Shown here in pieces: positions 8,090-38,703 of a stretch of DNA of 38,703 bases (positions are counted from its first letter, which is position 1; the number at the start of each line of letters is the position of its first letter). This DNA is from a virus (taxonomy: Duplodnaviria > Heunggongvirae > Uroviricota > Caudoviricetes). The position numbers were made by a program, and so were the translations under genes. Below the pieces are notes generated by a model that searched no databases, had not been told where the DNA came from, and saw nothing but the letters and a program-made list of their open reading frames with translations. The stretch is from IMG/VR virus record IMGVR_UViG_2724679538_000007, positions 1 through 38,703 of that record; one strand, written 5' to 3'.

Positions 8090-8095
8090 TAACAC

Positions 8096-8657: not shown

Positions 8658-9510
8658 TCTTGCAACCGTAACACATTTAAGGCCTTCACAACGGCCTGTG
8701 GAGCGTCGTGTGGCAGAAGTTGAAGATGGTTATACCCGTCTTGCAAATGCCCTGTATGAAGAGCTTATCGGCGCAGATTTAACGAAAAATCAGAGCAAGG
8801 TTGCCCACGCCATATGCCGTAAAACATACGGCTACGGTAAAAAGATGGATCGCATCTCTGATAGTCAGTTAGCTCAAATTACCAGGCTGCCAAGACAGAA
8901 GGTAAACAAGGCCAAGAATGAGCTTATCGCGATGAAGGTTATCCTTCGCGAAGGCCAGCAAATCGGGCCTAACAAGAACATCGAGGAATGGCAAATCGAA
9001 GGGTGTCACTACTCTGGTGATAATGTCACTGCATTGGTGACAAAAAGTGTCACCAAAACGGTGACAGCGCTGTCACCAAAACAGGGACACACAAAAGAAA
9101 CTATTACAAAAGAAAAAAGAAATAATAAAAACACTATGTCCGAAAGTGTTCGGACGGAGTGTGAAAAATCACCTGACCGTCACGAAGAAACCGACAAGGC
9201 ATTCGAGGAAATATTCTGGTGTGCAGGCATGCGGAAAGCCGGGAAGAAAAACGCAGCTTCGGCATTCAGAACACAGTTCAGGGAATGGCGTAAAACTACC
9301 AGGGGTACGGCAAGCGAGTTTGCCACGATGTTGGCAGAAGACATCGCATGCAGGAATGGTAAGCAGTTCGGATTCGACAGGTTGTTACCATCGAGCTACC
9401 TGAACGGTCAACGCTGGAACGACGAAAAGCCAGAAACCATTCAACCACAATCCAAACCATCATCCGCAATCACCGTATCGAAAACTGGCTACGTGTTTTT
9501 CGACAGGTGA
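8650..9510 (+). CDS. Replication initiator, lambda O family (286 aa)
   Basis: N-terminal domain parallels lambda O (DGY.RL...GADLTK.Q.KV...RKTYG..K.MDRI.DSQL..IT.LP ... GPNKNI.EW); contains the ori iterons internally. Confidence 0.9.
9003..9135 (+). repeat. Origin of replication: inverted/direct iterons (GTGACA/TGTCACC units) followed by an AT-rich tract
   Basis: ggtgacaaaaagtgtcaccaaaacggtgacagcgctgtcaccaaaacagggacac followed by acaaaagaaactattacaaaagaaaaaagaaataataaaaacac; same layout as ori-lambda inside O. Confidence 0.6.
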
Positions 9511-9513
9511 ACC

Positions 9514-9621
9514 ATGAAATCAAAAATCAAATCGCTACTGGTCGCTGGTTATAACCACGGCTGGTTAAGTATTTCATTTGTCGATTTCTGGTTTAAAAAT
9601 CTCAATCTGAGGGAATCATGA
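9514..9621 (+). CDS. Hypothetical small ORF (35 aa) between O and the helicase gene
   Basis: ATG 4 nt after the O stop; TGA overlaps the helicase ATG (ATGA); no clear RBS. Confidence 0.25.
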   Translation: MKSKIKSLLVAGYNHGWLSISFVDFWFKNLNLRES

Positions 9622-17231: not shown

Positions 17232-17726
17232 ATGAATATGGCAGCACCAAAGGGCAACCGATTTTGGGAGGCCCGCAGTAGTCATGGGCGAAATCCTAAA
17301 TTCGAATCGCCTGAGGCGCTGTGGGCTGCTTGTTGTGAATACTTCGAGTGGGTAGAAGCTAACCCGCTATGGGAGATGAAGGCGTTCTCGTATCAGGGGG
17401 AAGTGATACAAGAGCCTATCGCCAAGATGCGAGCGATGACCATTACCGGCCTCACTCTGTTCATTGATGTGACGCTTGAAACATGGCGCACATATCGCCT
17501 GCGAGAAGATTTATCTGAAGTCGTTACGCGAGCAGAGCAGGTCATCTACGACCAGAAATTCTCTGGCGCAGCCGCTGACCTTCTCAACGCTAACATCATC
17601 GCCCGTGATTTGGGCCTCAAAGAGCAGTCGCAAGTTGAAGACGTGACACCTGATAAGGGAGATCGCGATAAGCGGCGCTCTCGTATCAAGGAGCTATTCA
17701 ACCGTGGAACTGGACGCGATTCTTGA
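17232..17726 (+). CDS. Terminase small subunit, P22 gp3-like (164 aa)
   Basis: [38 protein letters not shown] resembles P22 gp3 as I recall it; precedes and overlaps terL. Confidence 0.8.
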
Positions 17727-19203
17727 TAACCTGAGCGACGAAGAGCAAATAGAATTGCTCGAGCTACTCGAAGAAGAAGAGAACTACCGTAACACACACC
17801 TGCTATATGAATTTACGCCATACAGCAAACAGCGTGAGTTCATCGACGCCGGACATGACTATCCAGAGCGATGTTTTATGGCTGGTAACCAGCTTGGTAA
17901 GTCATTTACTGGTGCTGCTGAAGTCGCGTTTCACCTTACAGGGCGTTATCCGGGAACAAAAGGCTATCCGGCTGATGGTAAATATGGGGGAGAGTGGAAA
18001 GGTAAGCGTTTCTATGAGCCGGTTGTCTTCTGGATTGGCGGCGAGACAAACGAGACGGTAACCAAAACGACTCAACGCATCCTGTGCGGTCGTATTGAAG
18101 AGAATGATGAACCGGGCTACGGTTCAATACCGAAAGAAGACATCATTAGCTGGAAGAAGTCTCCTTTCTTTCCGAATCTTGTTGATCATCTTCTGGTTAA
18201 GCATCACACGGCTGATGGCGTTGAAGATGGCATTTCAATCTGCTACTTCAAGCCATACTCGCAAGGCCGCGCTCGCTGGCAGGGTGACACAATCCACGGT
18301 GTGTGGTTTGACGAAGAGCCACCATACAGCATTTATGGCGAAGGTCTTACCCGTACCAACAAATACGGGCAATTCTCAATTCTGACGTTTACCCCTCTGA
18401 TGGGGATGTCTGACGTTGTTACCAAGTTCCTGAAGAACCCCAGCAAGTCGCAGAAAGTGGTCAACATGACCATCTATGACGCTGAGCACTATACCGACGA
18501 GCAGAAAGAGCAAATCATCGCATCCTATCCCGAACATGAGAGAGAGGCGCGTGCTCGCGGTATTCCTACGATGGGTAGTGGTCGAATCTTCCAGATACCG
18601 GAAGAGACGATTAAGTGTCAGCCGTTCGAGTGTCCTGATCACTTCTACGTAATTGGCGGGATGGATTTCGGATGGGATCACCCACAGGCGCAGGTTCAGC
18701 TTTGGTGGGATAAGGACGCAGACACAATCTACGTTTCACGCGTGTGGAAGGCGAAAGAAAAAACAGCGGTTCAGGCATGGGGAGCCGTTAAATCTTGGGC
18801 GCATAAAGTGCCAACCGCATGGCCTCATGACGGAAACCAGCACGAGAAGGGCGGCGGTGAGCAGCTTAAAGGGCAGTACGCGGACGCTGGTTTTATGATG
18901 TTGCAGGAGCATGCGACATGGCCTGATGGCGGTAATGCTGTTGAGCCTGGAATCACTGAATTGCGCGACATGATGCTTGATGGTCGCTTCAAAGTATTCA
19001 ACACCTGTGAGCCATTCTTTGAGGAGTTTCGCCTCTATCACCGTGATGAAAACGGGAAGATCGTCAAGCTTAACGACGACGTTCTCTCAGCCGTTCGCTA
19101 TGCATACATGATGCGCCGCTTCGCCAAAATGATGCGCGACATCAAAAAACCAAAAGAGAAGAAGATACCAGCCCCAATCAGGCCCATCGCACGGAGAACT
19201 TAA
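17704..19203 (+). CDS. Terminase large subunit, P22 gp2-like (499 aa)
   Basis: Same length as P22 gp2; ATPase motif region ([13 protein letters not shown]) and a C-terminal nuclease-like region. Confidence 0.92.
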
Positions 19204-21369
19204 ATGGCCGACGAAAACAGACTCAATTCCATTCTGTGTAAGTTTGACGCGGACTGGATGGCGAGCGATGAAGCCAGAACCGAGGCGACAAATGACCTGT
19301 ATTTTAGCCGAGTGTCGCAATGGGATGACTGGCTATCAAACTACACCACCCTGCAATATCGCGGACAATTCGATGTTGTTCGCCCGGTGGTCAGGAAACT
19401 GGTCGCAGAGATGCGCCGGAACCCTATCGACGTTCTCTTCCGACCCAAAGACGGCGCTAATCCTGATGCAGCCGATGTGTTGATGGGGATGTATCGTACT
19501 GATATGCGCCATAACACGGCAAAGATTGCCGTTAACGTTGGCGTTCGTGAGCAGATAGAGTCCGGCGTTGGTGCATGGCGTTTGGTCACACAGTACGAAG
19601 ACAACGATCCAACAAGCAATAATCAGGTAATCAGACGCCTGCCAATCCATGAAGCCTGCTCACACGTCATATGGGACGCCAACAGCAAGCAGATGGATAA
19701 GAGCGACGCTAAGCACTGCACGGTGATTAACGCTTTGTCACGCAATGGCTGGAAAGAGTTCGCAGAGGATTACGGTATTGATCCTGACACCTTGCCATCT
19801 TTCCAGAATCCTAACGATACATGGCTATTCCCGTGGGTGTCGAATGATGTCGTCTACGTCGCTGAGTATTACGAGGTAGAAGAGAAGAAGGAGAGAGTCT
19901 TCATCTACCGCGACCCGCTTACAGGTGAGCCGGTCAGCTATTACCAGCAGGATATCAAAGACGTCATCGACGACCTGGCTAATCGTGGATTCATTAAGGT
20001 AGCAGAGCGCAAGGTGAAGCGGCGGCGTGTGTATAAGTCGATCATCACCTGCACGCAGATACTGAAAGACCGCGAGAAGATAGCCGGAGAGCATATTCCA
20101 ATCGTTCCAGTGTATGGTGAATGGTCATTCGCTGGTGACAAGGAGTGCTACGAAGGAGTGGTAAGGCTGACGAAGGACGGTCAGCGCCTTCGTAACATGA
20201 TCATGTCATTCAACGCCGATATTGTTGCTCGTTCACCGAAGAAGAAACCGACCTTCTTCCCTGAGCAAATCGAAGGCTACGAATACATGTACGGTGGAAA
20301 TGATGACTATCCGTACTATCTGCAGAACAAGACCGATGAAAACGGTAACGACCTGCCGATTGGTCCAATCTCCTACATGGAAAACCCTGAAGTGCCGCAA
20401 GCCAACGCTTACATGCTTGAGGCTGCCACCAACGCAGTGAAAGAGGTGGCTAGTCTTGGCGTGGATGCGCAGGCGGCAAATGGTCAGGTCGCTTTCGATA
20501 CCGTCAATCAACTGAACATGCGGGCAGACCTTGAGACATACGTGTTTCAGGATAACCTGGCTACCGCAATGCGACGTGATGGCGAGATTTATGCCTCAAT
20601 GGTCAACGATATTTATGACGTTCCTCGTCATGTAACGCTGACACTTGAAGATGGTAGCGAGAAAGACGTTCAACTCTACGCGCAAGTTGTCGATTATCAG
20701 TCCGGCAATGTGGTCACACTCAACGACATTCGCGGTCGCTATGAGTGCTATACAGACGTTGGGCCATCCTTCCAGAGCATGAAGGAACAGAACCGCGCAG
20801 AGATTCAGGAATTGCTCACTAAGGTTCCGCAAGGTACTCCAGAGTTCCAGATGCTGATGCTGCAATACTTCACGCTGCTTGACGGTAAAGGCGTCGAGAT
20901 GATGCGAGAGTACGCGAACAAGCAACTGGTGATGATGGGGCTGAAGAAACCAGAAACACCTGAAGAGATGGAGATGGTACAGCAGGCACAACAACAGCCG
21001 CAGCAGCCATCAGCAGAGCAAATTCAGGCGCAGGGTATCCTTCTGCAAGGTCAGGCTGAATTGCTCAAGGCAGAGAACCAACAGGCGCAGATTCAGGTTG
21101 AAGCCGCCAAGGTTGAAGCCCAAAACCAACTCAACGCCGCGAAGATTGCAGAAATCTTCAACAATATGGACCTCGACAAGCAGGCAGAACTGCGTGAGTA
21201 CCTCAAGCTCGTAGGTCAATTCCAGCAACAGCGCAGTAAAGATGCTCGTGCTAACGCTGAGCTGCTTCTTAAAGATGCAGACCAGACTCATTCACAACGC
21301 ATGGATTTCGCGAATCTTATGCGTCAAGTTCAAATCCCCTCCGGCGGAGTAGCCGAGACACCTCAATAA
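19204..21369 (+). CDS. Portal protein, P22 gp1-like (721 aa)
   Basis: Long stretches match P22 portal as I recall it ([32 protein letters not shown] ... [26 protein letters not shown] ... [16 protein letters not shown]). Confidence 0.93.
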
Positions 21370-21382
21370 GAGAGAGTTAATC

Positions 21383-22294
21383 ATGGACCAAACCACCGAC
21401 ATTCAGGCTTCTGAAGAATTAACCCTGCCCGGCAATCATGCAGCGGCATCTGCTGATGGCTTAGTTGTCGATAATGCCAACGACAACGCAGGTCAGGAAG
21501 AAGGCTTCGAGATTGTCCTGAAAGACGATGAGAAACCAAAACAAGACCCGGCAACTAATGCTGAATTTGCCCGTCGCCGCATCGAACGCAAACGCCAGCG
21601 TGAGCTTGAGCAGCAGATGGAAGCGGTTAAGCGTGGAGAGTTGCCGGAGCACCTGCGGGTGAACCCTGAGTTACCAAAACAACCAGACCCTAACGATTAT
21701 CTTTCCGAAGACGCACTGGCTAAGTACGACTATGACCAGAGCCGCGCACTGGCTGCCTTCCAGCAGGCAAACAGTGAATGGCAGATCAAGGCTATGGACG
21801 CACGAAGCCAGGCTGTAGCCGAGCAGGGCCGCAAAACTCAGGAGTTCACCCAGCAATCAGCGCAATACGTCGAGGCAGCCCGTAAGCACTACGACGCAGC
21901 GGAAAAGCTCAATATCCCTGACTATCAGGAGAAAGAGGATGCATTCATGCAACTGGTGCCGCCAGCAGTCGGTGCCGACATCATGCGCCTCTTCCCGGAG
22001 AAATCCGCTGCTCTCATGTATCACCTTGGTGCTAATCCTGAGAAAACACGCCAGTTGCTGGCGATGGACGGGCAATCCGCGCTGATTGAACTCACTCGAC
22101 TGTCAGAACGTTTAACTCTCAAGCCTCGAGCCAAGCCTGTTTCAGAAGCCCCGTTACCTGATGAACCCATTCAGGGACACGCTGTTGCTGCAAATATCTC
22201 TGCGATTGAAAAGCAGATGGAAGCGGCAGCAAACAAAGGGGATGTAGAGACATACCGCAAGCTCAAGGCGCAACTGAATAAAGGAATTCGATAA
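21383..22294 (+). CDS. Scaffolding protein, P22 gp8-like (303 aa)
   Basis: Same length as P22 gp8 with conserved blocks ([31 protein letters not shown] ... [33 protein letters not shown]). Confidence 0.9.
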
Positions 22295-23589
22295 TGGCAT
22301 TAAATGAAGGTCAACTGGTCACGTATGCTCTGGATGAAATCATCGAAACCGTCCAGAACCTGACGCCAATGGCGTCTAAAGTGACAAAATACACCCCTCC
22401 GGCAGAATCCATGCAGCGTTCAAGCAACACCGTGTGGATGCCTGTCGAGCAGGAAGCGCCAACCCAGACTGGCTGGGATTTAACTGGCAACGCAACCGGG
22501 ATTCTGGAACTCTCCGTGAAATGCAACATGGGCGATCCGGATAACGATTTCTTCGAGCTTCGTGCAGATGACCTGCGTGATGAGCGTTCTTACCGTCGCC
22601 GCATCCAGGCATCCGCTAAAAAACTGGCGAATAACATTGAGTCAGCAATTGCCAAACAGGCAACTGAAATGGGCTCACTTGTTGTTCACGATACCAGAGC
22701 AATTGGTCCATCTACTGGCCTGTCTGGCTGGGATTTTGTGTCTGATGCAGAGCGCCTGATGTTCTCCCGTGAGCTAAACCGCGATATGGGCATCAGTTAC
22801 TTCCTGAACCCTGACGATTACCGCAAAGCAGGCCGCAACCTGGTAGATGGTGACATCTTCGGGCGCGTTCCTGAAGAAGCGTATCGCAACGGTACTATTC
22901 AGCGTCAGATTGCTGGCTTTGATGAAATTCTTCGCTCACCGAAACTTCCGGCAGTTACCAAGTCAACCGCTACTGGTGTAACTGTTTCTGGTGCGCAGAA
23001 GTTTAAGCCGCAGGCATACACTCTTGATACCGATGGTAACAAAGAGAACGTCGACAACCGTGTTGCAACGGTGACCGTATCCTCCACCACCGGATTTAAG
23101 CGCGGCGACAAAATCAGCTTCACTGGCGTGAAATTCCTGTCTCAGATGGCGAAGAACGTGCTGACTGATGACGCGACTTTCTCAATCACCCGTGTGATCG
23201 ATGGTACTCACATCGAAATCACGCCGAAGCCGATTGCACTGGATGACGCGTCACTGACAAAAGAAGAGAAGGCTTACGCTAACGTAAACACCTCTCTTGC
23301 TGATACCACTCCGGTAAACGTTCTGAACGTGGCAACAACCACCGCTAACGTGTTCTGGGCTGATGACTCAATCCGTCTGCTGTCTCAGCCGATCCCGGTA
23401 ACCCATGAGCTGTTTGCTGGCATGAAAACGTCTTCCTTCAGCATTCCTGGTATTGGTGTTAACGGCATCTTCGCAACGCAGGGTGATATCAACACTCTGT
23501 CTGGTAAGTGCCGTATTGCTGTGTGGTATTCAGCATGTGCTGTACGACCAGAGGCAATTGGTGTTGGTCTGCCTAACCAGACCGCGTGA
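22294..23589 (+). CDS. Major capsid (coat) protein, P22 gp5-like (431 aa)
   Basis: [20 protein letters not shown] ... [29 protein letters not shown] ... [16 protein letters not shown] parallels P22 coat. Confidence 0.93.
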
Positions 23590-23596
23590 TAACCAG

Positions 23597-23620
23597 AGGG
23601 AGCTTCGGCTCCCTTTTTTA
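23597..23620 (+). terminator. Hairpin plus T-tract after the coat gene
   Basis: AGGGAGC-ttcg-GCTCCCT followed by TTTTTTA. Confidence 0.5.
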
Positions 23621-23633
23621 TCTGGAGACAAGC

Positions 23634-23876
23634 ATGACACACATGATCTTTCGTCATGGCGACATGAAGAAGTGGAAAGGCGTTGGCTACGACTTTGAAA
23701 TCGTGAAAGCCGAAGAGCTTCAGGAATATCTGGATGCTGGCTGGTTTTCACATCCTGATGACCTTTTGAAGGATGTTGCAGAGCCAGAGCCAGAGCCAGA
23801 GCCAGAAGAAAAACAGCGTAAAAAGCCTGGTCGAAAACCTAAGGCGGCAGCAGATGAACCTGACAACGAAGGGTGA
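23634..23876 (+). CDS. Hypothetical protein (80 aa) with an EPEPEPEPE acidic repeat and a basic C-terminus
   Basis: ATG with GGAG RBS after the coat terminator; (GAGCCA)x4 coding repeat at 23781-23804; its stop overlaps the gp4 start. Confidence 0.5.
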
Positions 23877-24354
23877 TTTAGTCCTTGCAGCATTACGTAA
23901 GCTCGGTGTTGCATCAAATGCCACGTTAACCGATGTCGAACCGCAGTCTATGGAAGACGGGGTCAACGACCTTGAAATGATGATGGCTGAATGGCTTGGC
24001 GGTGATGTGTCACCTGGTATCAACGTTGGCTACATTTTTGCTGATGCAGATGTTGCTCCGGATCCTGGCGATGAGCACGGCTTATCAAATAACGCTATAA
24101 ATGCCGTCATTTTCAACCTTGCCTGCCGCATTGCTCCAGATTATGCGCTGGAAGCGCCAGCAAAACTTATAACCACTGCCAGATACGGGAAAGAGCGACT
24201 CGTCAAACTGTCTGCAATGGACAGAGCAAAAGCCGCTAAATGTAAGTCCGGTTATCCAAACCGTATGCCTGTTGGTAGCGGTAACCAGTTGGCGAAGTGG
24301 AACGGTTGGAATTACTTCCAGCGAAAGGAACCTTGCGATAACGGGAGCGAATAA
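23854..24354 (+). CDS. Head-tail adaptor (tail accessory factor), P22 gp4-like (166 aa)
   Basis: [43 protein letters not shown] ... [13 protein letters not shown] parallels P22 gp4; track ORF carries an upstream extension in this frame. Confidence 0.85.
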
Positions 24355-24450
24355 TGCCGATTCAGCAACTTCCGCTTATGAAAGGTGTCGGCAAAGACTT
24401 TAGAAACGCTGACTATATCGACTATCTGCCAGTGAATATGCTGGCAATTT
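24355..24450 (+). pseudogene. Remnant 5' fragment of gene 10 (31 gp10-like codons, then a premature stop)
   Basis: [31 protein letters not shown] matches the P22 gp10 N-terminus and starts directly after the gp4 stop; reading frame ends with ...ILI-stop; the intact gene 10 resumes about 670 bp downstream. Confidence 0.65.
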
Positions 24451-24494
24451 TGATATAATAAGTACATGAAAAATCGAAACTTTAAGGAGTAGAT

Positions 24495-25079
24495 ATGCTT
24501 TCTGAGAATGCTAAAGATATACCTGGATTTGAAGGTGTTTATGCCGTAACAGAAGATGGCAGGGTGTATTCTCACTCACGTGTTGTTAAGGCTGCGCATG
24601 GCAGCACGCAACTCAGAAAGGGGCGCTGGTTAAAGCCTAAAATAAATCAGGGAAGGGTGCTTTATAATATCGGAGCAAAATGGACTTTTGCCCATCGAAT
24701 CGTTGCAATGACATTCCTGCCAAATCCTGAAAACAAGCCTCAGGTAAATCATATTGATGGCAATCCACTCAATAATAACGTCAATAATCTTGAGTGGTGC
24801 ACTCAAAGCGAAAACATCAAACATGCATACGCCACAGGATTAAAGAAACCAATCAAGTTTTTCGGAACCAAGCACCCAAAACACAAGTTGAGTGATGACG
24901 ATGTTCTTGCAATCAAGTCATCAAAAGAAAGCTTGTCAGTAATTGCGGCTAAGTACGGGATATCTAAGACTTGGGCAAGTAGGCTAAAGCGTGATGCTAA
25001 CTGGGTTCATATAAAGGTTGATTCCAATGGCAATACAACAACTACCACTAATGAAGGGATTAGGGAAAAGTGCGGTTAA
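24495..25079 (+). CDS. HNH homing endonuclease (NUMOD4-like N-terminus, HNH core, C-terminal DNA-binding motif; 194 aa)
   Basis: GFEGVYAVTEDGRVYS (NUMOD4-like) and HRIVAMTFLPNPENKPQVNHIDGNPLNNNVNNLEWCTQSENIKHA (HNH); AAGGAG RBS; local AT-rich composition; splits gene 10. Confidence 0.85.
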   Translation: MLSENAKDIPGFEGVYAVTEDGRVYSHSRVVKAAHGSTQLRKGRWLKPKINQGRVLYNIGAKWTFAHRIVAMTFLPNPENKPQVNHIDGNPLNNNVNNLEWCTQSENIKHAYATGLKKPIKFFGTKHPKHKLSDDDVLAIKSSKESLSVIAAKYGISKTWASRLKRDANWVHIKVDSNGNTTTTTNEGIREKCG

Positions 25080-26445
25080 TGCTGATTATATAGACCAACT
25101 TCCAGTCAATCTTTTAGCTACGCCCAAGGAGGTGTTGAATTCATCGGGATATCTTCGCTCATTCCCGGGCATTGCCAAACGCTCTGATGTAAACGGCGTA
25201 TCTCGCGGCGTCGAGTACAACATGGCGCAGAATGCTGTTTATCGTGTGTGTGGTGGCAAGCTGTACAAAGGAGAAAGTGAAGTCGGTGACGTTGCCGGAA
25301 GTGGTCGCGTATCAATGGCACATGGTCGTATATCACAGGCGGTAGGGGTTAACGGGAAACTGGTCGAGTATCGCTATGATGGCACGATTAAAACCGTCTC
25401 AAACTGGCCTACAGACAGCGGATTCACGCAGTATGAGTTAGGCTCAGTCCGCGACATTACGCGCTTACGTGGGCGTTATGCGTGGTCAAAAGACGGCACT
25501 GATTCATGGTTTATCACTGATCTTGAAGACGAATCGCATCCTGACCGTTACAGCGCACAATATCGTGCCGAGTCTCAGCCGGACGGCATCATCGGTATCG
25601 GGACATGGCGAGACTTCATCGTCTGCTTTGGTTCATCGACTATTGAATATTTCTCCCTGACTGGCGCAACCACCGTTGGTGCTGCTTTGTATGTCGCACA
25701 GCCATCACTGATGGTGCAAAAAGGCATTGCCGGGACTTACTGCAAAACGCCATTCGCTGATTCTTATGCGTTCATCAGCAATCCTGCAACAGGTGCTCCG
25801 TCTGTATACATCATCGGCTCCGGTCAGGTATCACCAATCGCCAGCGCGAGCATTGAGAAAATACTACGCTCCTACACTGCTGATGAACTGGCTGATGGCG
25901 TGATGGAATCGTTGCGGTTTGATGCTCATGAGTTGCTGATTATTCACCTGCCGCGCCATGTTCTCGTGTACGACGCATCTTCAAGCGCCAATGGTCCGCA
26001 ATGGTGTGTGTTGAAAACTGGCTTGTATGACGATGTGTACCGCGCTATCGACTTCATTTACGAAGGCAATCAGATAACGTGCGGCGATAAGCTGGAGTCC
26101 ATGACCGGGAAATTGCAGTTCGACATCAGCAGCCAGTATGGGCTACAGCAAGAACACCTGCTGTTTACTCCACTCTTCAAAGCAGATAACGCCAGAGTTT
26201 TCGACCTTGAAGTTGAATCTTCAACTGGCGTAGCTCAGTACGCCGACCGCCTGTTCCTCTCTGCAACCACTGACGGCATAAATTATGGGCGTGAGCAGAT
26301 GATTGAGCAGAATGAACCGTTCGTTTACGACAAACGCGTTTTGTGGAAACGAGTAGGGCGCATCAGGAAAAACATTGGTTTCAAATTGCGCGTTATCACG
26401 AAGTCACCTGTCACTCTGTCTGGCTGCCAGATAAGGATTGAGTAA
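25027..26445 (+). CDS. Tail accessory/head completion protein, P22 gp10-like (about 473 aa; track ORF begins at a TTG at 25018)
   Basis: [49 protein letters not shown] ... parallels P22 gp10 through to the C-terminus; start overlaps the 3' end of the HNH gene. Confidence 0.9.
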
Positions 26446-27293
26446 TGGCGGATTCGAATCTCAATGTGCCGGTAATCATTCAGGCTACACGGCTAGACAC
26501 ATCAGTCCTTCCACGCAATATCTTCTCGCAGTCGTATCTGCTTTACGTTATCGCACAGGGCACTGATGTTGGTAACGTGGCTAACAAAGCCAACGAGGCC
26601 GGACAGGGCGCTTATGACGCACAAGTCAGGAACGATGAGCAGGATGTGATTCTGGTCGATCACGAAATTCGACTGGCATCGGCTGAATCGAAGATACAGG
26701 ACCACGAAACAAGGATCACTAACGCAGAAGCGGCGATAGTCGGCCTTGATTCTCGATTAACGACAGCAGAAAACGATATTGATTATCTGACGAATGAAGT
26801 TATCGCCATTCAAAACACGCTTTCAGACCATGAAACTCGCATTGATGCTCTGGAGTATGCAACCACGCGCAAGAAGTCAGAGGTTGTTTACTCTGGCATA
26901 TCAGTAACCATTCCGACAGCGCCGACCAACCTTGTTAGCCTGCTGAAAACGCTCACGCCGTCATCCGGCACGTTAGCACCATTCTTCGACACCGTTAACA
27001 ACAAGATGGTTGTGTTCAACGAGAACAAAACCTTGTTCTTCAAGCTGTCGATCGTCGGGACGTGGCCCAGCGGAACCGCCAACAGGTCAATGCAGCTAAC
27101 CTTTTCCGGCTCTGTTCCTGACACACTGGTAAGCAGTCGCAACTCGGCGACAACAACCGATAACATCTTGTTAGCTACGTTCTTCAGCGTGGATAAAGAC
27201 GGCTTTCTTGCCACAAATGGCAGTACGTTAACCATTCAGTCGAATGGTGCGGCGTTTACCGCCACAACCATCAAAATCATTGCGGAGCAGTGA
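26445..27293 (+). CDS. Tail needle protein (gp26 family) with an extended C-terminal knob-like domain (282 aa)
   Basis: N-terminus [43 protein letters not shown] matches the P22 gp26 N-terminal domain; about 50 aa longer than P22 gp26, with a different C-terminus, as in Sf6-type needles. Confidence 0.85.
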
Positions 27294-27760
27294 TGGAAAT
27301 AAAGCTCATCGATAATCCGGTGAAGCTTGCAGAATTCCTCAACAACCCGGCAAACACGGGGAATATCGTAGACAGTGGAGATAAATACTACATCAAGCCT
27401 GATGCGGTATATCTCGGCATCTACGAAGGATTAGTGCTGGCTGGAGTTCATGAAGTGCGTAACTTCTGGCATAGCGTTGTTGAATGCCATGCGGTGTATG
27501 ACCCCGGATTCCGTGGTGAATATGCACTGCAAGGGCATCGATTATTCTGCAAATGGCTTCTCGAAAACTCACCATTCCTTAACAGCATCACCATGGTTCC
27601 TGACACAACGAAATACGGACGGTCAATTATCCGTTTGCTTGGCGCTACCCGTGTTGGTCACCTTGATGATGCGTACATGAGTAACGGAAAACCGGTTGGA
27701 ATCACCCTCTATCAATTACCTCGTTCGAAATATGAGGAGCTATTAAATGTTAGTACTTAG
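27290..27760 (+). CDS. Virion assembly/ejection-associated protein in the P22 gene 14 position (156 aa)
   Basis: Synteny only (between the needle gene and the first ejection protein); similarity to P22 gp14 not verified. Confidence 0.6.
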
Positions 27761-28427
27761 CGAAAGCTTCAAGAATAAATTGCTTCCCATGAATGGGTAT
27801 ATGAAAGGCGGCAGCGACTCCGGCTCTAAAGCCCAGGCACGCGCAACTGAAAAGGGTATCGAATTGCAGCGCGAAATGTGGCAGACGAACATGCAGAACC
27901 TTGCACCGTTCACACCACTCGCTCAGCAGTACGTATCACAGTTGCAGAATCTTTCCTCTCTTCAGGGGCAAGGTCAGGCTCTTAACCAGTATTACAACTC
28001 TCAGCAGTACAAAGACCTTGCAGGTCAGGCGCGCTATCAGAGTCTGGCAGCAGCAGAGGCAACGGGTGGATTAGGCTCTACAGCAACAGGAAACCAGTTA
28101 GCAGCAATCGCACCTACACTCGGTCAAAACTGGCTGTCAGGTCAGATGAACAACTACAACAATCTGGCAAACATTGGCCTTGGTGCTCTTACAGGTCAGG
28201 CAAACGCCGGGCAGAACTACGCTAACAACGTCAGCCAATTGTATCAACAGCAGGCGGCAGCATCTGCGGCGAATGCTAACCGACCATCAGGATTGCAATC
28301 AGCTTTGGGCGGTGCCATGAGCGGTGCGGCATCAGGGGCGATGATTGGCTCTGTGGTGCCTGGAATAGGTACAGCTGTTGGCGCTATTGGTGGCGGCATT
28401 ATCGGTGGTCTTGGATCATTGTTTTAA
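27747..28427 (+). CDS. Ejection (internal virion) protein, P22 gp7-like (226 aa)
   Basis: Gln/Ala/Gly-rich low-complexity protein with a Gly-rich hydrophobic C-terminus; GAGGAG RBS; synteny with P22 gene 7. Confidence 0.7.
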   Translation: MLVLSESFKNKLLPMNGYMKGGSDSGSKAQARATEKGIELQREMWQTNMQNLAPFTPLAQQYVSQLQNLSSLQGQGQALNQYYNSQQYKDLAGQARYQSLAAAEATGGLGSTATGNQLAAIAPTLGQNWLSGQMNNYNNLANIGLGALTGQANAGQNYANNVSQLYQQQAAASAANANRPSGLQSALGGAMSGAASGAMIGSVVPGIGTAVGAIGGGIIGGLGSLF

Positions 28428-28436
28428 GGTGGGAAT

Positions 28437-29909
28437 ATGGCTACTTGGCAACAAGGAATCAACTCAGGCGGTTTTCTTGCTGGTATCGGTGGGCAAAACT
28501 CAAATGCGCCAAAGGCAAGTGATGTAAGTGAGGCGTTGGCCTATATTCGCCAGAACAACGAAATGGAGCGTTCAGGGCGCAATAACATCGGCCTTCAGGC
28601 ATTGCAGGGACTTGGTAGTGTCGCTCAAACATATCAAGCCGCAAAGCAACAGGAAGCGGATGCTGCATTCCAAAAAGAATATGCGGCAGCCATCCAGTCC
28701 GGTGATCGACAGCAGGTTCGAGATCTGATGACCAAATATCCTGGTCAATTAGAGAAGATTCAGTCTGGTATGAAGTGGGCAGACGAAGACCAGCGCAATT
28801 CTATCGGCACCTTAGCGGCAGGCGCACGCCTTGCGGCCTCGTCTCCAGAAGCAATGCAATCATGGCTGCAAAACAACGCCAAGGAACTGGCGCGCGTCGG
28901 TGTTGACCCTAACAACGTTGCTCAGATGTATCAGCAGAATCCTTCAGGATTTGGTGAGTTTGTTGATCACCTTGGAATGGCTGCTCTTGGTCCGATTGAC
29001 TACTTCAATGTTCAGGACAAGATGGCAGGTCGTGAGATTGACCGAGGCAGGCTGGCAGAGACAATCCGCAGCAATCAGGCTGGCGAGGCACTTCAGGCGA
29101 GAGGGCAGGATATTAGCAGAGCAAATGCGTTAACGTCAGCATATGCACCAACAGCCGCAATGCAGAATTACAATCAGTACGCGCAAATGTTAAAGGCGGA
29201 TCCAGATGGTGCAGCGGCATTTGCGGCAGCGGCGGGAATTAATCCCAATGCTAAGAAATTACTTAAGGTTGAAACCAATCCTGATGGCTCGGTAACTAAG
29301 TATTACACCGATGGCAGCGAGGAAGCCGGAAAACTAAACCAACCTATATCTGGTGATGGCATTAAACCAATTAGTTTGCCACAAGCGCAAAGCATCATAG
29401 ATAAGGCTAATGAGGGTTCCAAGAAGGCGGCAGGATTTGCTTTGCGATTAAAAGATTCAATGGACTCAATGAATCAGCTTAGTAAAAGCATTGACCCTAA
29501 GCGAGTTGCATTAATAAATCGCTCTCTTGGTGATGGGACTATTGCAAATTTAAGCCTATCACCAGCGGAGCAGCAATATATGGTAAATGCGAGAGACGCC
29601 TTGTATGCAATTTTGCGCCCAGAAACAGGTGCAGCAATTACTCTGCCAGAGATGCAGGAGTATTCCAAAATGTACCTGCCTCAGCCTGGTGATTCCAAGG
29701 CTGCTACTGAAACAAAAATGCGAAAAATGCAGGGCCAATATAACTCATTACGTGGTCAGTCTGGTCGCGTTTATGATGCTTTGGTGGTTTCAAGTGCTGC
29801 AAATAGTCAACAACAGAGCAATAGCCAACAACCGACAAATACCCAACAGCAGCAGAGTCAATCCGGATCATATACCTCAAAATCAGGCATTCAATTTACG
29901 GTGGAATGA
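28437..29909 (+). CDS. Ejection protein, P22 gp20-like (490 aa)
   Basis: Synteny and size; AAGGTGG RBS. Confidence 0.75.
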
Positions 29910-31753
29910 TGAAAGTAACTGCAAACGGTAAGACATTTACCTTCCCTGATGGTACGAGCACGGAAGATATTGGCACCGCCATTGATGAGTATTTTGCTGG
30001 TCAGGCTGTTCAGCAACAAACAGTTAATCAGGTCAATAATGAACCAGCACGTGAAGAACCATCATTGATGCAACAAGCTGGCGATTGGCTCACAGGTGGT
30101 CAAAGTGCAGGGCAAATTGCAGAGCAGGCTGGTCGTGGTCTGGTAAACATACCATTTGACGTATTGCAGGGTGGCGCAAGTCTGATTAATGCAATCAGCC
30201 AGGGGCTTGGTGGCCCCAAGGTTTTGGACGATGTCTATCGTCCAGTAGATCGACCAACAGACCCTTATGCGCAAGCTGGAGAAACAATTGGCGGGTATTT
30301 AGTTCCAGGAGTTGGAACGGCAGGAAGCATGGCTATTGGATCACTGGCAGAGGCCGCAAATCAGAAAGGCGATTTCGCACAAAATGCAGCTAAAAATGCC
30401 GGAGTTAACCTTGCCGCTCAGGGTGTTCTTTCCGCAGCAGCAAAGGGAATAGGGCGTGGAATAACGGCTATAAAAGGTGATATTGCGCCAGAAGTGGCGA
30501 AGAAAATTGCCACATCAGAATCGATGGGCGTGACACCAATGACATCTGATGTTATCCCGCCGAAAAATGCTTTCACTCGCGGACTTACTCAGGATGCTGA
30601 GGGGGCTTTGCTCGGGACAGGCTCAAAGCGAGCGGAGCAATATGCAACGCGTAGTAAGCTGGTAAGCAATTATTTTGACCGTTTTGGTGAGTACAACCCT
30701 GATGATGTGGTGAAATCTCTTACCACCACGTTAAGGGGGCGGAAGGATGCCGCTGGCGCTGTTATCAATGACGTCACCAATAAAATGGGTAATGCCGCAG
30801 TTGATACCACAAATACCATGAATGCTCTGAATACAGCGATCGCAAGACAGGAACGGCTTGGGACGTCTGCCAATCAAAGCCTGCTTACATCCTTGCGTAA
30901 CCTACGTGAAGAATTAGCAAACCCTGCAACTGATTTGGATGTTACGTTTGATCTCTTGCGTCAGCACAGAACAGCATTTAGATCTAATGTTCAGGGAGAT
31001 GCTATGGTCTTCCCCAACCAGGCAAAAGCAGCTACCAATATGGTAGAGAATGCAATGTCAAAAGACCTTCGTAACGCAGTTGCTAAAAACCTCGGTGCAT
31101 CAGACGCAGCAAAATACCTTAAAGCAAATTCCGATTATGCAAACGTTTATAATAAGGTGCTTAATAAAAACATTGCCAACAAGCTCAACAAGGCAAGCAG
31201 TGAAGCCAGTCCTGAACTTATAAATACCGTTGTATTAAGCAGAAAACCATCTGACGTGAAACGAATCTGGAGCGCACTGGATGATAAGGGGAAAGATGCT
31301 ATGCGTGCAGCTTACGTCAGCAAAATAGCGGAAAAGGCCGGGGACTCTCCAGCCAAGTTCATCACTGAAGTTAATAAGCTGAAATCTCAGTCAGGCGGTG
31401 AAATTTACAACACTATTTTTTCTGGAAAGCACATGAAAGAGCTTGATGCTCTTCATGAAGTTCTACAGCAAACAGCAAGGTCAGACACCGCAAATGTAGT
31501 AACTCAGACGGGGCAATCGCAAGCCAACAGGATAAGGACGATTGGCGCAACTGCGACCCTTGGCGTATCAATGGGGCTTGAGGCTGGTTTTGGTGCAATG
31601 ATGCGCTTGTATGAGTCCAAAGCAGCAAGGAATGCTCTCTTACGTCTGGCAAACACTAAAACTGGAACGCCAGCTTATGAAAGAGCGCTAAATAATGCTG
31701 CAAATGCGATACGCCCTATACTTTCAAGCCAAATTACAGCAGAACAGCAATAA
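29906..31753 (+). CDS. Ejection protein, P22 gp16-like (615 aa)
   Basis: Synteny and size (P22 gp16 is about 609 aa); start overlaps the gp20 stop. Confidence 0.75.
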
Positions 31754-33089: not shown

Positions 33090-34991
33090 ATGACAGATTC
33101 AATAAATGCCAATGTTGTAGTGAGTATGCCTTCGCAACTCTTCACTATGGCTCGTTCTTTTAAAGCCGTAGCCAATGGCAAAATTTATATCGGGAAAATT
33201 GACACTGATCCGGTAAATCCTGAAAACCGGATTCAGGTTTATGTAGAGAACGAAGACGGCTCTCACGTTCCTGTTTCTCAACCAATCATCATTAACGCTG
33301 CTGGTTATCCGGTATATAACGGACAGATTGCTAAATTCGTAACTGTGCAAGGCCATTCCATGGCTGTTTATGATGCGTATGGTGCACAGCAATTCTATTT
33401 TCCTAATGTGCTGAAGTATGACCCTGACCAGTTCAAACCTGAACTACAAGGTGCCAATGGAGCAAGCTTAATTGGTACTAATCATCGCGGCACCTTAAAG
33501 GCTGACTTAGATCGCATTGACAATAGAACGTCGGGACAGTCCATCGCAGATTTAAAGTCTAATACTGGTGATATTGTTATCGACTCCTCTGTTACGGACG
33601 CAATCACCCCAATTTCAGGCAGCGAGATATCTGGGGCGAGTAACGGGGAACATGTCACCGCTAAGGGTACTGTCGGGATTACTATAAATGATAGCAGGGT
33701 TAAGGTTGATAACTTGCTAATGCGCGGCGACGGCACTGTAGACTACACGGACACCTCACCGACATATAATGCCATTATCTATGGCTCGGACGTTGTTGTG
33801 TCCCGTTCATACGCTAAAGACACGACAATGGGGTACGACTTGGCCGCCGGTGCTTCCAACGTTAAGCTAATTGGTAATACAAGTGAAAATATGACGTCGC
33901 ACCCCGCCGTTGGTACACCACCTGTTTCAGCCGGTGGCTATGGTGTGCTTCTGGGAACTAACGAGGACGTATTAATCCTGGGCCATTCTGCTAAGGGCAC
34001 AAACCCTGCTGACCGCCACGCAGTATACCTATCAAATACGAACAACACTGACCAGAACAAAGATGTTCGGGTAATCGGCTTACGTGCGGATTACAGCGCA
34101 GGTCCATCCGCGGGGGATAAGCCGGAGCGGTCATCACCTATGATATTCGCCCGCGGCAACAACGGCGTCATTATCAGTTCTTCCCAACTCCGTGGCGGCG
34201 GAGCCGGTATAAATTTCACAGATGAGCGCGTAGGATACAGTTCAATAACCTTGAGTGATTTGCAATTACTGGATATTCGTAAGAATACCGCGGATGAGTC
34301 ATGGGGTATCGCACTCAACCACGCGTCTGCTAACGCTTCCAATGTCAACACCCAGAATATTATTAACGGCGTTAATATAGTAATGGCGCCCGGGAGCACA
34401 TCTGCCGACAGGTCGAATCAGTACCCTATACACCTTAATTCACAGCGGTATGTAAATATTGATAATGCCATCATAGCATCGTCGGGGTTGGCGTACGGAA
34501 TACGCCTGATAGCTACAAGTTACTGTAATATCAGTAATGTAGTAGGGTTTACTAACGATGGGACATCTGCCGCGGCGGCCGTGGCGTTCTTCCAGTTTCA
34601 GAACGGAAGCAGTAATATTAAATTAAGCAATATAAACGTCCAATCAAGAAATACAATGTTCGCAGGGCTGGATAATGTAACCGACTTGCAAGTGGATTGG
34701 GTGCGTAAAGTTCGCATTAACGTTGTATCTGGAGCGGCTACAGTATCAGGGGATATATGGGAACTAGTTAGCGGCGTAACCGTCACTGGGGCGAGTATAG
34801 CTGTTCAACTTAAGGGCCATGTAACACAAACCGCTGCTGATGGCGCTATCGTAAGGCCGGCTAGTGCTAATCAATTTATTGTTGCTGGCACTGACTCTAA
34901 AAGGATTACAATTTCTGTATATAACGTTAATGGCACTGGTGTTGTGCCAAACACTGGTACTTATTCGTTCGATATTGTGCTATATAAATAG
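33090..34991 (+). CDS. Tailspike protein (P22 gp9-like N-terminal head-binding domain, divergent receptor-binding domain; 633 aa)
   Basis: N-terminal about 120 aa parallel P22 tailspike (ANVVVS ... [22 protein letters not shown] ... [12 protein letters not shown] ... NVLKYDPDQ); the rest is unrelated by eye and Gly/Asn/Ser-rich, consistent with a beta-helix. Confidence 0.88.
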
Positions 34992-35050: not shown

Positions 35051-36499
35051 CTATCGACATTTGTTGAAGTCAAATATCATTGTGTCATTATGAATAAGTG
35101 TGGTGTAGATACTATTACTTCTGTATGGTTTTTTGCACGATGATGCCAATGCAGATGGTAAGTTTATCTTAGAATCATAATCTACTTTTATTCCCATGCT
35201 GTTAAAAATAAATGCCCCAAACATCCAGTCTGATCTGATATATGATGGAGTAATCATGCCAATGATTCCGATTTTTTCATTAGCGTTTTGTACTGGTTGA
35301 GGAAATGAAGTTAACCCATTAAATCTTATTTTAGTTATATTTTGGCTTGATGTTATGTCCTTAGCCATAGAATAAAATAAAAATTCCTCTTTGCTCTTCT
35401 GTGCTTGTAAGGAATTCCCATACATGTAACTAACAATAAAGCACGAGAAAATTAAAGGGATAGGTGTGAAAAACGTCCATCTATTGGCGCTTGAAGATAT
35501 AATATAAACTGAAAAAAACATGAGACCAGAAAATCCTACTAATACCCTGGGATATACAACAGGTTCATCTAGAATAAAAAGAACGCCAATAACAGATAAT
35601 AATACGCCAAATATGCATATTAATGTAGCTATTGTCGTGTTAATTGTTTTTCTTTGAAATGCATTTGTGAATGACATTGCTATTGCTATTGATAATGTTA
35701 TAGCAAATATACCCCCCAGAAATCCCGAAAGAGCCTTTAATATCATACTTGTGTAAATTTTGTAATTTTCTGATACATTAAATGCAAGACCTTTTACATT
35801 TAATGCTAATTGAGCATGGTTTGTGCTATATGCGCCAGAAACATAAATGCTAGCAATTAGTAGTTTATAAATAATAAGTGCGGCAGTTAATGCCAGTATA
35901 TATACTGAAATATTCTTAAGAAGTGTTGTTATATTATCTGTTGATTTTAAAATAATACAATTCAAACAAGTGAGAGCAATAAATATGTTTACTGATGATT
36001 GATACAGGCTTAAAGTAAAAACCAACAGAATGATCGATGTCGCGAAATTTATAAAACTTTTGTTTTTTAAAAGAAGTGCGGCGGACACAACAGATAATGA
36101 CACAGAGAGTGACATTGTAAATACGTCAAATTTGTAAGACAAATTTTGAAGATAAAAAGGTGATACAATCAAAGATAGTGAAATTAATACTACCCTAAAT
36201 TTTCCTTCGAGTTTGGTTATGAAACAATAATAATAACAAGAGGTTATCATTGTTAACATTGATAGCAAAAGAGGCATTGGTGATATGTTGATAACCTTAC
36301 CACCAAATGACATACCTTTAATTATCCATTCTGCAAGCGGTCTACCATTGTCTGCCCATCTTGCATATCCAGCAATATTTCTTGATATGTCGTCAATGTA
36401 GAAAACATTGCCAATAATCAATGGTAATGAGTATAGAATAGCAAGTGTAATGGCATAGGTATATCCATTACGTTTTAAATACATTATAAATGAGTTCAT
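35051..36499 (-). CDS. Serotype-specific O-antigen glucosyltransferase, GtrC-type polytopic membrane protein (482 aa)
   Basis: Third gene of a gtrA-gtrB-X operon; many predicted TM helices; strongly AT-rich relative to the rest of the prophage; GtrC-type proteins are typically this divergent. Confidence 0.7.
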
Positions 36500-37416
36500 T
36501 GTGTTTTACCTTTTATTATATAACGAGGTCTCATCTTTGTTTCTGTGTAAATTCTTCCAATGTATTCACCTAGCACACCAATACCTATCAATTGGACGCC
36601 GCCAAGGAACAGAATAGACACGAGCAATGAAGGATAACCACGAACAGGGTTTCCAAACACCAGTGTGTCAAGAATCATCAACGCACCGTAAATAAATGCC
36701 ATACTGGCAACAAAAAGCCCGATATAAGTCCACATGCGTAGTGGGAATGTTGAGAAACTTGTTATTCCCTCAAGGGCTAAATTCCACAACTTCCATCCGT
36801 TAAATTTCGTGCTCCCTGCTACACGTTCGGCGCGAACATATTCTACAACATCAGTCTTTCCGCCAACCCAACTCAGTATACCCTTCATGAATAGGTTGCG
36901 TTCTTGCATGAGCTTAATATTTTCTACAACTTCACGGCTCATTAACCGGAAATCACCAACATTTTCCTCAATCTTTGGATTACTTATTTTGTTGTGTAGC
37001 TTATAGAACCACTCAGCAGTTTTGCGCTTCAGACGACCATCAGTAGATCGATCTGATCGTTTGGCAAGAACCATATCAGCGCCTGCCTGCCACTTTTCTA
37101 TAAGATGAGGAATAACCTCAATCGGGTCTTGCAGGTCAACATCAATTGGAATCACGGCATCGCCAGTTGCATGGTCTAACCCTGCAAACAATGCTGGTTC
37201 TTTACCAAAGTTGCGTGTAAATGACAGCGGAACAACTAGCGGATCAGAAACAGCCAGAGCGTTAATGATTGACTCCGTAGCGTCTTTGCTTCCGTCATTT
37301 ATGAAAACAATTTCTACTTCATATGACTTCAACTCTTCGAATTCACGTACCGTTTTATAGAAAATTGGTATCGCTTCTTCTTCATTGAAGACAGGAACGA
37401 CCAGAGATATCTTCAT
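36496..37416 (-). CDS. gtrB: Bactoprenol glucosyltransferase GtrB (GT2 family, 306 aa)
   Basis: [19 protein letters not shown] ... INDGSKD ... two C-terminal TM helices; typical GtrB organisation. Confidence 0.92.
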
Positions 37417-37775
37417 TTCGCATCCCTAAAGACAATGAACTTTGAATAGACGAAACCGCACACCAGGCTGATGGCGGAGAAAGTGATAAGGGTGACCATC
37501 GGGGGAAGTGCGCATCTATCAGCAGCCCACCCGACGACAACACTCAAGGTTCCCATGAATCCCACGTATAACAAGTAACGCATCGTTGTAGTCGATGCTT
37601 TGAATGTGAATCTTGCATTCGCGAAGAAGCTAAAGCTCACAGCTACTATGAAACCTGCGAAGTTTGCCATAGCTTGATTTGTATGCGCTGCATAGATACA
37701 TACACCAAAAACCACCCAGTGTATAAGTGTGTTCAGCACACCAATTGAGGTGTACTTTGCAAATAGCTTTAACAT
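37413..37775 (-). CDS. gtrA: GtrA-type flippase (small four-TM protein, 120 aa)
   Basis: Size, hydrophobicity and position as the first gene of the gtr operon, overlapping the gtrB start. Confidence 0.88.
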
Positions 37776-37929
37776 TTATTTAATCAATGAGTTCTGAAGG
37801 GCATGAAGTCTATCATCCAAGTCTCAATCGATCGATACTTGGTGTGGTTGATGGGGCAAAACTGAGACACAAAAAGCTTTGCACTGAATTGCAAGGCTTA
37901 GTGCATTCTCTGGAGTGCGATATGTTCTG

Positions 37930-37975
37930 ATGACAAAAAATTAGCGCAAGAAGACAAAAAATCACCTTGCGCTAA
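37930..37975 (-). terminator. Perfect 10-bp inverted repeat plus U-tract between host ybhB and the gtr operon (minus strand)
   Basis: Plus strand TTAGCGCAAG-aagacaaaaaatcac-CTTGCGCTAA; on the minus strand the hairpin is followed by ATTTTTTGT. Confidence 0.5.
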
Positions 37976-37977
37976 TG

Positions 37978-38136
37978 CTCTGTCTCAGGTCACTAATACT
38001 ATCTAAGTAGTTGATTCATAGTGACTGCACATGCTGTGTTTTGCAGTATTATGTAGTCTATTATTTAGACAAAAATCTTCATAACGCATTGATATTAATG
38101 TTTTTTACTGTTTCTTGTTCAGCTTTTTTATACTAA
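37978..38136 (+). other. attR: lambda-type P arm with Int arm-type sites, ending in the 15-bp core GCTTTTTTATACTAA (38122-38136)
   Basis: caggtcactaatactatctaagtagttgattcatagtgactgca...cagcttttttatactaacttgagcgaaacggg parallels the lambda attP P arm and the core/attB B' junction as I recall them. Confidence 0.8.
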
Positions 38137-38226
38137 CTTGAGCGAAACGGGAAGGTAAAAAGACAAAAAGTTGTTTTTAATACCTTTAAGTGATACCAGA
38201 TGGCATTGCGCCATCTGGTTGAGCAA

Positions 38227-38703
38227 TTAACTAAACATCGCAGTAATCGAGGCGCTTGCCAGAGAGTGGAAATGGACGTTAAACCCGACCATCGCGCCAC
38301 TGGCACCTTCATCGACATCAATACGTTCTACATCCAGCGCGTGAACGGTAAAAATGTAGCGATGAGTTTCGCCCTTCGGCGGCGCTGCGCCATCGTACCC
38401 AGTTTTACCAAAGTCAGTTCGCGTCTGCAAAACGCCGTCTGGCATTGCTACCAGACCAGAGCCAAACCCTTGCGGTAATACGCGGGTATCAGCGGGTAAG
38501 TTAACAACTACCCAGTGCCACCAGCCAGAGCCAGTTGGCGCATCCGGGTCGTAGCAGGTGACGACAAAACTTTTGGTTCCCGCAGGAACATCATCCCATG
38601 CCAGATGCGGCGAAATATTATCGCCATCGTAACCCATGCCGTTAAAGACATGGCGATGCGGCAGCTTATCGCCATCGCGCAGATCATTACTAATGAGTTT
38701 CAT
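38227..38703 (-). CDS. ybhB: Host PEBP-family protein YbhB (158 aa), adjacent to lambda attB
   Basis: MKLISNDLRDGDKLPHRHVFNGMGYDGDNISPHLAWDDVPAGTKSFVVTCYDPDAP matches E. coli YbhB as I recall it; its start codon is at the window edge. Confidence 0.9.
   Translation of the reverse strand: MKLISNDLRDGDKLPHRHVFNGMGYDGDNISPHLAWDDVPAGTKSFVVTCYDPDAPTGSGWWHWVVVNLPADTRVLPQGFGSGLVAMPDGVLQTRTDFGKTGYDGAAPPKGETHRYIFTVHALDVERIDVDEGASGAMVGFNVHFHSLASASITAMFS

Follow-up and report, generated by a model that had tools for sequence, protein, structure and literature searches.

Evidence that a P22-like prophage of Escherichia fergusonii occupies the lambda attachment site between ybhC and ybhB with a lambda-homologous integration cassette

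We analysed a stretch of phage DNA of 38,703 nucleotides (the window, taken at its full length) and conclude that it very probably represents nearly all of one 38.2-kb P22-like (Lederbergvirus-type) prophage, which sits between ybhC and ybhB at the attachment site of lambda, carries a lambda-homologous cassette for integration, and arose by ordinary lambdoid recombination. Positions 1–11071 of the window matched contig JZWP02000001.1 (GCA_000968885.2) of Escherichia fergusonii GTA-EF04 at 100.000% identity, and the prophage-specific GtrC mapped to this contig too. Given the 100.000% identity, JZWP02000001.1 belongs either to the source genome or to a clone of it. The JZWP prefix denotes E. fergusonii GTA-EF04, an isolate from chopped kale (PMC4832150). 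The host is E. fergusonii GTA-EF04 and not an E. coli K-12-like strain, which explains why the bacterial flank is just 93–96% identical to most E. coli. The features of the window are summarized in Table 1.

Table 1. Features located in the window, with the basis of each assignment.
Feature	Position	Strand	Basis
int, lambda-type heterobivalent tyrosine integrase, 356 aa	1-1071	-	Pfam Arm-DNA-bind_1 (PF09003) and Phage_integrase (PF00589)
xis, lambda excisionase, 72 aa	1049-1267	-	Pfam Exc, E = 3.9e-41; 71/72 identical to lambda Xis
TTGCGTGTAATTGC, cII box of pI, shortly before the xis ATG	1280-1293	-	Exact pattern match, identical to lambda
cII-like activator	8198-8476	+	PHROG CII-like transcriptional activator, E = 2e-37
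Second TTGC-N6-TTGC box, at the position of lambda pRE	8231-8244	-	Pattern match
P22-type packaging and virion module	17232-31753	+	Pfam, PHROGs, DNA similarity
gp4-like ORF	23773-24354	+	Position and DNA match to genes of relatives annotated 'head-tail adaptor Ad3'
Tailspike, P22-type N-terminal head-binding domain, divergent receptor-binding domain	33090-34991	+	Pfam Head_binding, residues 4-114, E = 1e-64
gtrABC O-antigen glucosylation cassette, between tailspike and att	35051-37775	-	Pfam; adjoins attR as in P22
gtrC, serotype-specific	35051-36499	-	Pfam Glucos_trans_II
gtrB, GT2 bactoprenol glucosyltransferase	36496-37416	-	Pfam Glycos_transf_2
gtrA, GtrA flippase-like	37413-37775	-	Pfam GtrA_DPMS_TM
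Lambda sib/tI retroregulation element	37868-37984	- (int-sense)	Lambda homology continuing upstream of P1
P arm, lambda-type, ending in the core	37985-38136	+	Sites mapped by alignment to lambda
P1 arm-type Int site	37985-37999	+	14/15 identical to lambda; CAGGTCACTAATAC motif identical
H1 IHF site	38000-38021	+	21/22 identical to lambda
P2 arm-type Int site, inverted orientation	38018-38029	+	12/12 identical to lambda
X1 Xis site	38030-38042	+	11/13 identical to lambda
X1.5 Xis site	38043-38053	+	10/11 identical to lambda
X2/F, Xis site and overlapping Fis site	38050-38070	+	17/21 identical to lambda
H2 IHF site	38083-38110	+	21/28 identical to lambda; central ATTGATATT kept
B′ arm and ybhB 3′ intergenic region	38137-38226	+	About 85 bp after the core identical to the empty EC14 site
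ybhB, PEBP-family 'kinase inhibitor', bacterial flank	38227-38703	-	158 aa, Pfam PBP

The 15-bp core GCTTTTTTATACTAA was found in the window as a single exact copy at 38122–38136 on the + strand, where only 0.13 chance matches were expected in the shuffled window even with two mismatches allowed. This core is the breakpoint between phage homology and bacterial homology. When window 37780–38703 was used as the query against 5,426 complete E. coli genomes, the alignments to empty sites began exactly at 38122 (query position 343), which is the first base of the core. Lambda attP (J02459 27473–27742) aligned to window 37868–38140 with 87.6% identity (E = 2e-84), and this alignment ended a few bases past the core. 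A three-way alignment of the window, lambda, and the unoccupied reference site of E. coli EC14, where ybhC and ybhB are adjacent, was lambda-like to the left of the core and bacterial (B′) to its right. The gene that follows the B′ region is annotated as ybhB in 5,419 E. coli genomes, and bioA-bioBFCD-uvrB lie downstream of it in the source contig. The alignments to lambda and to the empty site give the order P-O-B′. They bear out the sequence-only reading, which had taken this junction for an attR next to ybhB and had described a lambda-type P arm and a 15-bp core followed by the B′ sequence of attB: the core is exact, is identical to that of lambda on exact alignment, and is the place at which the homology switches.

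The int stop codon marks the left edge of the window; attL and ybhC lie outside the window and were read from the source contig. The order there is ybhC, B arm, GCTTTTTTATACTAA, P′ arm, and int (B-O-P′). The core is separated from the int stop codon by 73 bp that hold the P′ arm (H′ and P′1–P′3) and are identical to lambda. From core to core, the prophage measures 38,209 bp. Among the contigs that encode this exact Int, all 10 that were examined carry ybhC, a 427-aa Pectinesterase-family gene, 134 bp beyond the int stop codon. The expected match of the flanks to the ybhC-ybhB locus was thus found on both sides, on the ybhB side in the window and on the ybhC side in the source contig.

The sub-sites of the P arm were assigned according to the established lambda map. 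The P1-to-core distance is 137 bp in both the window and lambda, with zero indels between, and the whole P arm is 87% identical to that of lambda (138/158). The substitutions in X1, X2/F, and H2 would be the only plausible place for functional differences. Beyond P1, 92 of 98 positions of the upstream sib stretch and 48 of 49 positions of the tI hairpin are identical to lambda. The tI hairpin and its U-run, at 37935–37984 on the minus strand, gave a folding energy of −27.9 kcal/mol (z = −6.6) and the same structure as that of lambda, and the homologous stretch in the HK97 record is annotated 'sib retroregulation site'. A simple promoter/terminator scan did not report tI, the loop of which is above the 8-nt limit of the scan, and the hairpin was found by direct folding. 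A search of 37700–38703 against Rfam gave two chance-level matches at E ~1 and no sib family.

At the other end of the window, the int and xis genes had been read as essentially those of lambda, which was confirmed. Int is identical to lambda Int at 353 of 356 residues, the changes being D118N, H164P, and I248V, and the catalytic residues R212, K235, H308, R311, H333, and Y342 are all present. At the DNA level, int is 97.9% identical to lambda and 99.4% identical to HK97. The xis gene overlaps the start of int by 23 bp, as in lambda. Upstream of xis lies TTGCGTGTAATTGC, which we take to be the cII recognition motif of pI known from lambda. Lambda homology stops at approximately 1315, beyond this box, and the sequence upstream of there is divergent. 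The cII-like gene encodes the regulator that is expected to drive pI. The second box of the same pattern would, from its pRE-like placement, be a candidate for a corresponding function.

Together, these elements form a lambda/HK97-homologous block of approximately 1.7 kb with the attP order sib/tI, P arm, core, P′ arm, int, xis, and pI. The derivation from lambda of the P arm and of int/xis, as initially proposed, holds for those parts, but the block is larger and extends from sib/tI (~37868) across att to pI (~1315). The lambda-type block stands where classic P22-like phages have cassettes of the thrW, argU, or argW type, and it is joined on one side to the P22-style gtrABC cassette and on the other side to the mosaic lambdoid early-left region. 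These comparisons support the earlier proposal of a module exchange, in the form of a lambda integration cassette on a P22-type genome.

By analogy with lambda, integration would proceed with Int and IHF bound to attP (P1, H1, H2, core, H′, and P′2-3), and recombination between attP and attB inside the 7-bp overlap would generate attL (B-O-P′) and attR (P-O-B′). Excision would likewise depend on Int, Xis, IHF, and Fis acting at P2, X1-X2/F, H2, H′, and P′1-2. During infection, the cII-activated pI promoter would provide Int without Xis, and in the infecting genome sib would bring about the destruction of the pL-derived int mRNA, again as in lambda. In the prophage, sib is located at the far end (attR), apart from int; because of this separation it would no longer degrade the int mRNA, and induction would give both Int and Xis. 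The sequence elements required by such a lambda-type scheme are all present, and the scheme itself is modelled on lambda.

The packaging and virion genes are arranged in the order TerS, TerL, portal, scaffold, coat, gp4-like, an HNH insert, gp10, tail needle, gp14, gp7, gp20, and gp16. Pfam assigned the portal to P22_portal (E = 1e-163), the coat protein to P22_CoatProtein (E = 3e-166), and the terminase to Terminase_6N/6C, and PHROG matches were obtained for TerS, scaffold, Hc3, gp10, the tail needle knob, gp14, and the ejection proteins gp7, gp20, and gp16. The virion DNA is approximately 95% identical to that of the E. coli P22-like phages Louie, Dewey, APC_JM3.2, and IME10, and the DNA identity to P22 is 81.6% over the conserved parts. 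The P22 Pfam families, the P22-type PHROGs, and the DNA similarity agree in supporting the initial description of the structural genes as P22-like. The gene content points to a short podovirus tail and to headful packaging from a pac site. Over residues 114–632 of the tailspike, no phage record exceeds approximately 31% identity. Typical lambdoid mosaicism marks the early region, which encodes Erf, a cI-like repressor, cII, an O-like initiator, a primase/helicase, Ant, and Q, and the genes of the window form one canonical set in the order int-xis-erf-N-cI-cro-cII-O-primase-nin-Q-lysis-terS...tailspike-gtr. From its domains and its position at att, gtrABC is predicted to be a serotype-conversion cassette.

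We weighed other explanations against that of one P22-like prophage with a lambda-homologous cassette. A lone 15-mer could in principle recur by chance, and the match to the lambda att site might then be a coincidence or mark a secondary site, with integration by some other route. This has practically no probability and is refuted by the 254 bp of P arm and sib that are homologous to lambda (E = 2e-84), by a homology breakpoint that falls exactly at the core, and by the reciprocal attL with its lambda-identical P′ arm at the other end. It is also very improbable that the window is a composite, in which a lambda-like remnant (int/xis/att) lies beside or around an unrelated P22-like prophage. 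Against this, the core is present once in the window, the ORF list of the whole window holds no second integrase, a single complete lambdoid gene set stands in canonical order, and the 38.2 kb from core to core correspond to one P22-like genome. The isolated, plaque-forming P22-like phage Huey has the same int together with a full lambda attP on a circular genome of 38.6 kb. Degraded mixed elements do occur at this locus, as in E. coli 2013C-4282, where an IS3-truncated lambda-type int and myovirus-type baseplate genes are found with gtr-attR-ybhB.

Less far-fetched, although still unlikely, is a fixed relic, in which the lambda-type att and int no longer work, for example because of the substitutions that X1, X2/F, and H2 carry in the P arm or because of a defect elsewhere. 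The P arm (87%) is clearly more diverged from lambda than int (98%), as this explanation would predict, but neither H1 nor any arm-type Int site is damaged, the spacing is exact, Int and Xis are intact, and each essential gene examined is a full-length ORF with an end-to-end profile match. None of the results speaks against reading the window as one P22-like prophage with a lambda-homologous cassette.

We compared this prophage with known phages. The lambda module (J02459 27473–29126), of which HK97 has a near-identical copy, shares with the window the core, the P-arm spacing, the P′ arm, the pI box, the sib/tI hairpin, and the ybhC/ybhB site. The carrier is a siphovirus in lambda, whereas here it is, judging from its genes, a short-tailed P22-type phage; beyond sib, lambda has the b region and the window has gtrABC. 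P22 (AF217253) shares the virion and packaging gene set and its order as well as the placement of tailspike, gtrCBA, att, int, and xis. In contrast, P22 has its own integrase and the tRNA site thrW (PMC2629481), whereas the prophage has the lambda cassette at an intergenic site, and the tailspike receptor domain and GtrC of P22 are unlike those of the window.

A P22-type integrase with a tRNA thrW site is absent from the prophage, the integrase being that of lambda and the site intergenic. The tRNA sites reported for P22-like phages are thrW for P22, ST64T, and ST104 and argU for epsilon34 (PMC2629481), and Kapi1 integrates at argW. The statement that P22-like phages usually use other integrases and tRNA sites is accordingly true of the classic ones. 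P22-like prophages of E. coli have been found at five different loci (PMC3603311), and the P22-like Gally of E. coli LF82 occupies the HK022 site between torS and torT (PMC9928086). Like the window, Gally uses a siphovirus-type, non-tRNA site, but with a different core specificity. A P22-type integrase or thrW site is no requirement for membership of the P22-like phages, and integration cassettes vary within the group, their exchange being well documented.

The same combination occurs in E. coli. The complete prophage of E. coli C41 (NZ_CP127252 2,142,9xx-2,184,0xx) shares the arrangement ybhC-attL-int-xis...P22-type virion genes-tailspike-gtrCBA-attR-ybhB and the same gtrA-to-sib spacer as the window; it differs in its Sf6/CUS-3-type head genes, an IS100 insertion, another tailspike and GtrC, and its E. 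coli host. A P22-type tailspike, gtr, and ybhB were found in one stretch in at least 13 complete E. coli genomes (C41 and at least 12 others). These 13 genomes, defined by a P22 head-binding tailspike together with gtr and ybhB, are the lower bound for P22-like lysogens. In 91 of the 5,426 E. coli genomes gtrA, attR, and ybhB are contiguous, but this number was rejected as a count of P22-like lysogens, as 2013C-4282 has myovirus-type baseplate genes beside this junction.

Among isolated phages, Huey (PQ850609), which comes from the BASEL study (PMC11990801), shares a P22-like virion module, lambda-type int/xis (98.3% DNA identity), and a complete lambda attP. The Lederbergvirus vB_EcoP-720R6 (ON470605) shares a P22-like virion module and lambda-type int/xis (97.4% DNA identity), and its record runs from the lambda-type int through attR into ybhB-bioABFCD-uvrB. 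Both differ from the window in having no gtrABC beside att, another head-gene subtype, and other tailspikes and early genes. For the P22-like phage phiHS3, whole-genome sequencing of the lysogen showed integration upstream of ybhC (2026 preprint, bioRxiv 10.64898/2026.05.19.726188). For phiHS3, attB and attL were demonstrated by PCR, and induction and lateral transduction were reported (bioRxiv 10.64898/2026.05.19.726188). According to its published description, phiHS3 has an O-antigen-ligase-like gene where the window has gtrABC.

A reconstituted gtrA-sib-attP-int query was compared by megablast with 50,697 phage records, and no isolated phage covered 80% or more of it. At the megablast level, no isolated phage in these 50,697 records had gtrA joined directly to lambda attP, so that chromosomes alone show the exact gtr-sib junction. 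The combination of a P22-like virion with lambda integration at ybhC/ybhB is already known; it recurs in phages and in chromosomes and is experimentally established for phiHS3. The combination is present in GenBank phages and many chromosomes, and the prophage opens no new question. It is a clean textbook case of modular lambdoid evolution, in which a self-contained block of approximately 1.7 kb would have moved onto a P22-type genome with its regulatory geometry intact. For annotators, it follows that a lambda-type virion should not be assumed where a lambda-type int is found at ybhC-ybhB.

In situ headful packaging before excision (lateral transduction) is known for P22, Gally (PMC9928086), and phiHS3 (bioRxiv 10.64898/2026.05.19.726188). 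Around attB, a patch of approximately 1.5 kb, extending between roughly −300 and +1,200 bp from the core, shows 99–100% identity over a background of 93–96%. GTA-EF04 has this patch in common with a small number of E. coli lineages. It is an improbable, though conceivable, proposition that a P22-like prophage at the lambda att site mobilises the ybhB-bio-uvrB side at high frequency, of which lambda is incapable, and that the 1.5-kb patch is a footprint of cross-species phage traffic. As a trace of lateral transduction the patch is weak evidence, because it is short, lies across attB, and gives way to a mosaic farther out. Of the 5,426 complete E. coli genomes, 1,913 (~35%) have the lambda att site occupied, with a lambda-type attR, and the present prophage indicates that this site is used in E. 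fergusonii too.

The tailspike of the GTA-EF04 prophage resembles those of known P22-like phages in its N-terminal head-binding domain alone. The best identity found for residues 114–632 among 50,697 phage records was approximately 31%, and a megablast comparison with 5,426 complete E. coli genomes gave no match for either this region or gtrC. Only four contigs across the whole assembly collection encoded a GtrC protein of exactly this sequence. Judged from these comparisons, the tailspike domain and GtrC probably constitute a rare O-antigen receptor/modification pair that is specific to E. fergusonii. In regards to expression of the glucosylation cassette, the gtr promoter should be located in the spacer between gtrA and sib, which includes ATCGATCGAT with a single GATC. 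The gtr operon of P22 is phase-variable through the action of Dam and OxyR at several GATC sites.

Coordinates of the features in the P22-like prophage
Feature	Position	Strand	Assignment
Ant-type anti-repressor, 240 aa	12355-13077	+	phrog_63, E = 3e-98
HNH endonuclease ORF, 194 aa	24495-25079	+	phrog_59, E = 4e-53
Tailspike	33090-34991		
gtrC	35051-36499		
gtrA-sib spacer	37776-37867		

A degraded element occupies the att-lambda site of E. coli 2013C-4282 (NZ_CP027579, 1,826,084-1,838,958). This element comprises a lambda-type int cut short by an IS3-family element, then Mu/SfV-like baseplate and tail-fibre genes, and finally gtrCBA-attR-ybhB. The junction of gtr with a lambda-type attR is thus not confined to P22-like prophages, because the 2013C-4282 element carries Mu/SfV-like genes. 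Lambda-type P-arm sequence also immediately adjoins ybhB in ECMA0423 and SCPM-O-B-8794, which are labelled E. coli but are separate GTDB species representatives, and E. albertii NBRC 107761 possesses a P-arm copy, together with sequence matching the initial ~300 bp of the int query, approximately 3 kb from ybhB. Since P-arm sequence lies near ybhB in these three genomes, the att-lambda site appears to be in use across several Escherichia species.

We compared the bacterial flanks of the GTA-EF04 site with E. coli. Between approximately −300 and +1,200 bp relative to attB, a patch that takes in window positions 38122-38703 and extends past them, GTA-EF04 was 99–100% identical to 11 complete E. 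coli genomes, including Z0117EC0005, the own site of which is empty, whereas the genes surrounding this patch exhibited 93–96% identity to E. coli. On the basis of these identities, the patch looks like a small segment of inter-species recombination centred on the phage hotspot. The left flank also differs in gene content; in the stretch of the source contig that bears the attL/ybhC side (L089, 12490-15673), ybhC is followed directly by pgl, and the E. coli genes ybhJ, ybhI, ybhH, and ybhD are missing. The pgl, ybhA, and modC genes of GTA-EF04 were only 79–83% identical to those of E. coli, far below the 93–96% of ybhC, ybhB, bio, and uvrB.

The HNH endonuclease ORF lies within the virion operon between a gp4-like gene and gp10, the start of which it overlaps, and is assigned to Pfam NUMOD4/HNH_3 in the annotation of the source contig. 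Salmonella phage UPF_BP1 possesses this ORF at 96% identity, annotated as an HNH endonuclease, whereas Louie, Dewey, CurroJimenez, and IME10 do not, and their matches are broken in two around it. This distribution suggests that the ORF is probably a homing-endonuclease insertion. The Ant-type anti-repressor gene is placed differently from the P22-style arrangement: it is located in the nin region and not in the immI region adjoining the tailspike.

The att-int match of MW057783.1, a 48,361-bp record named 'Campylobacter phage CJLB-4', had the same identity and span as that of lambda itself, and this record looks like phage lambda and not a Campylobacter phage.
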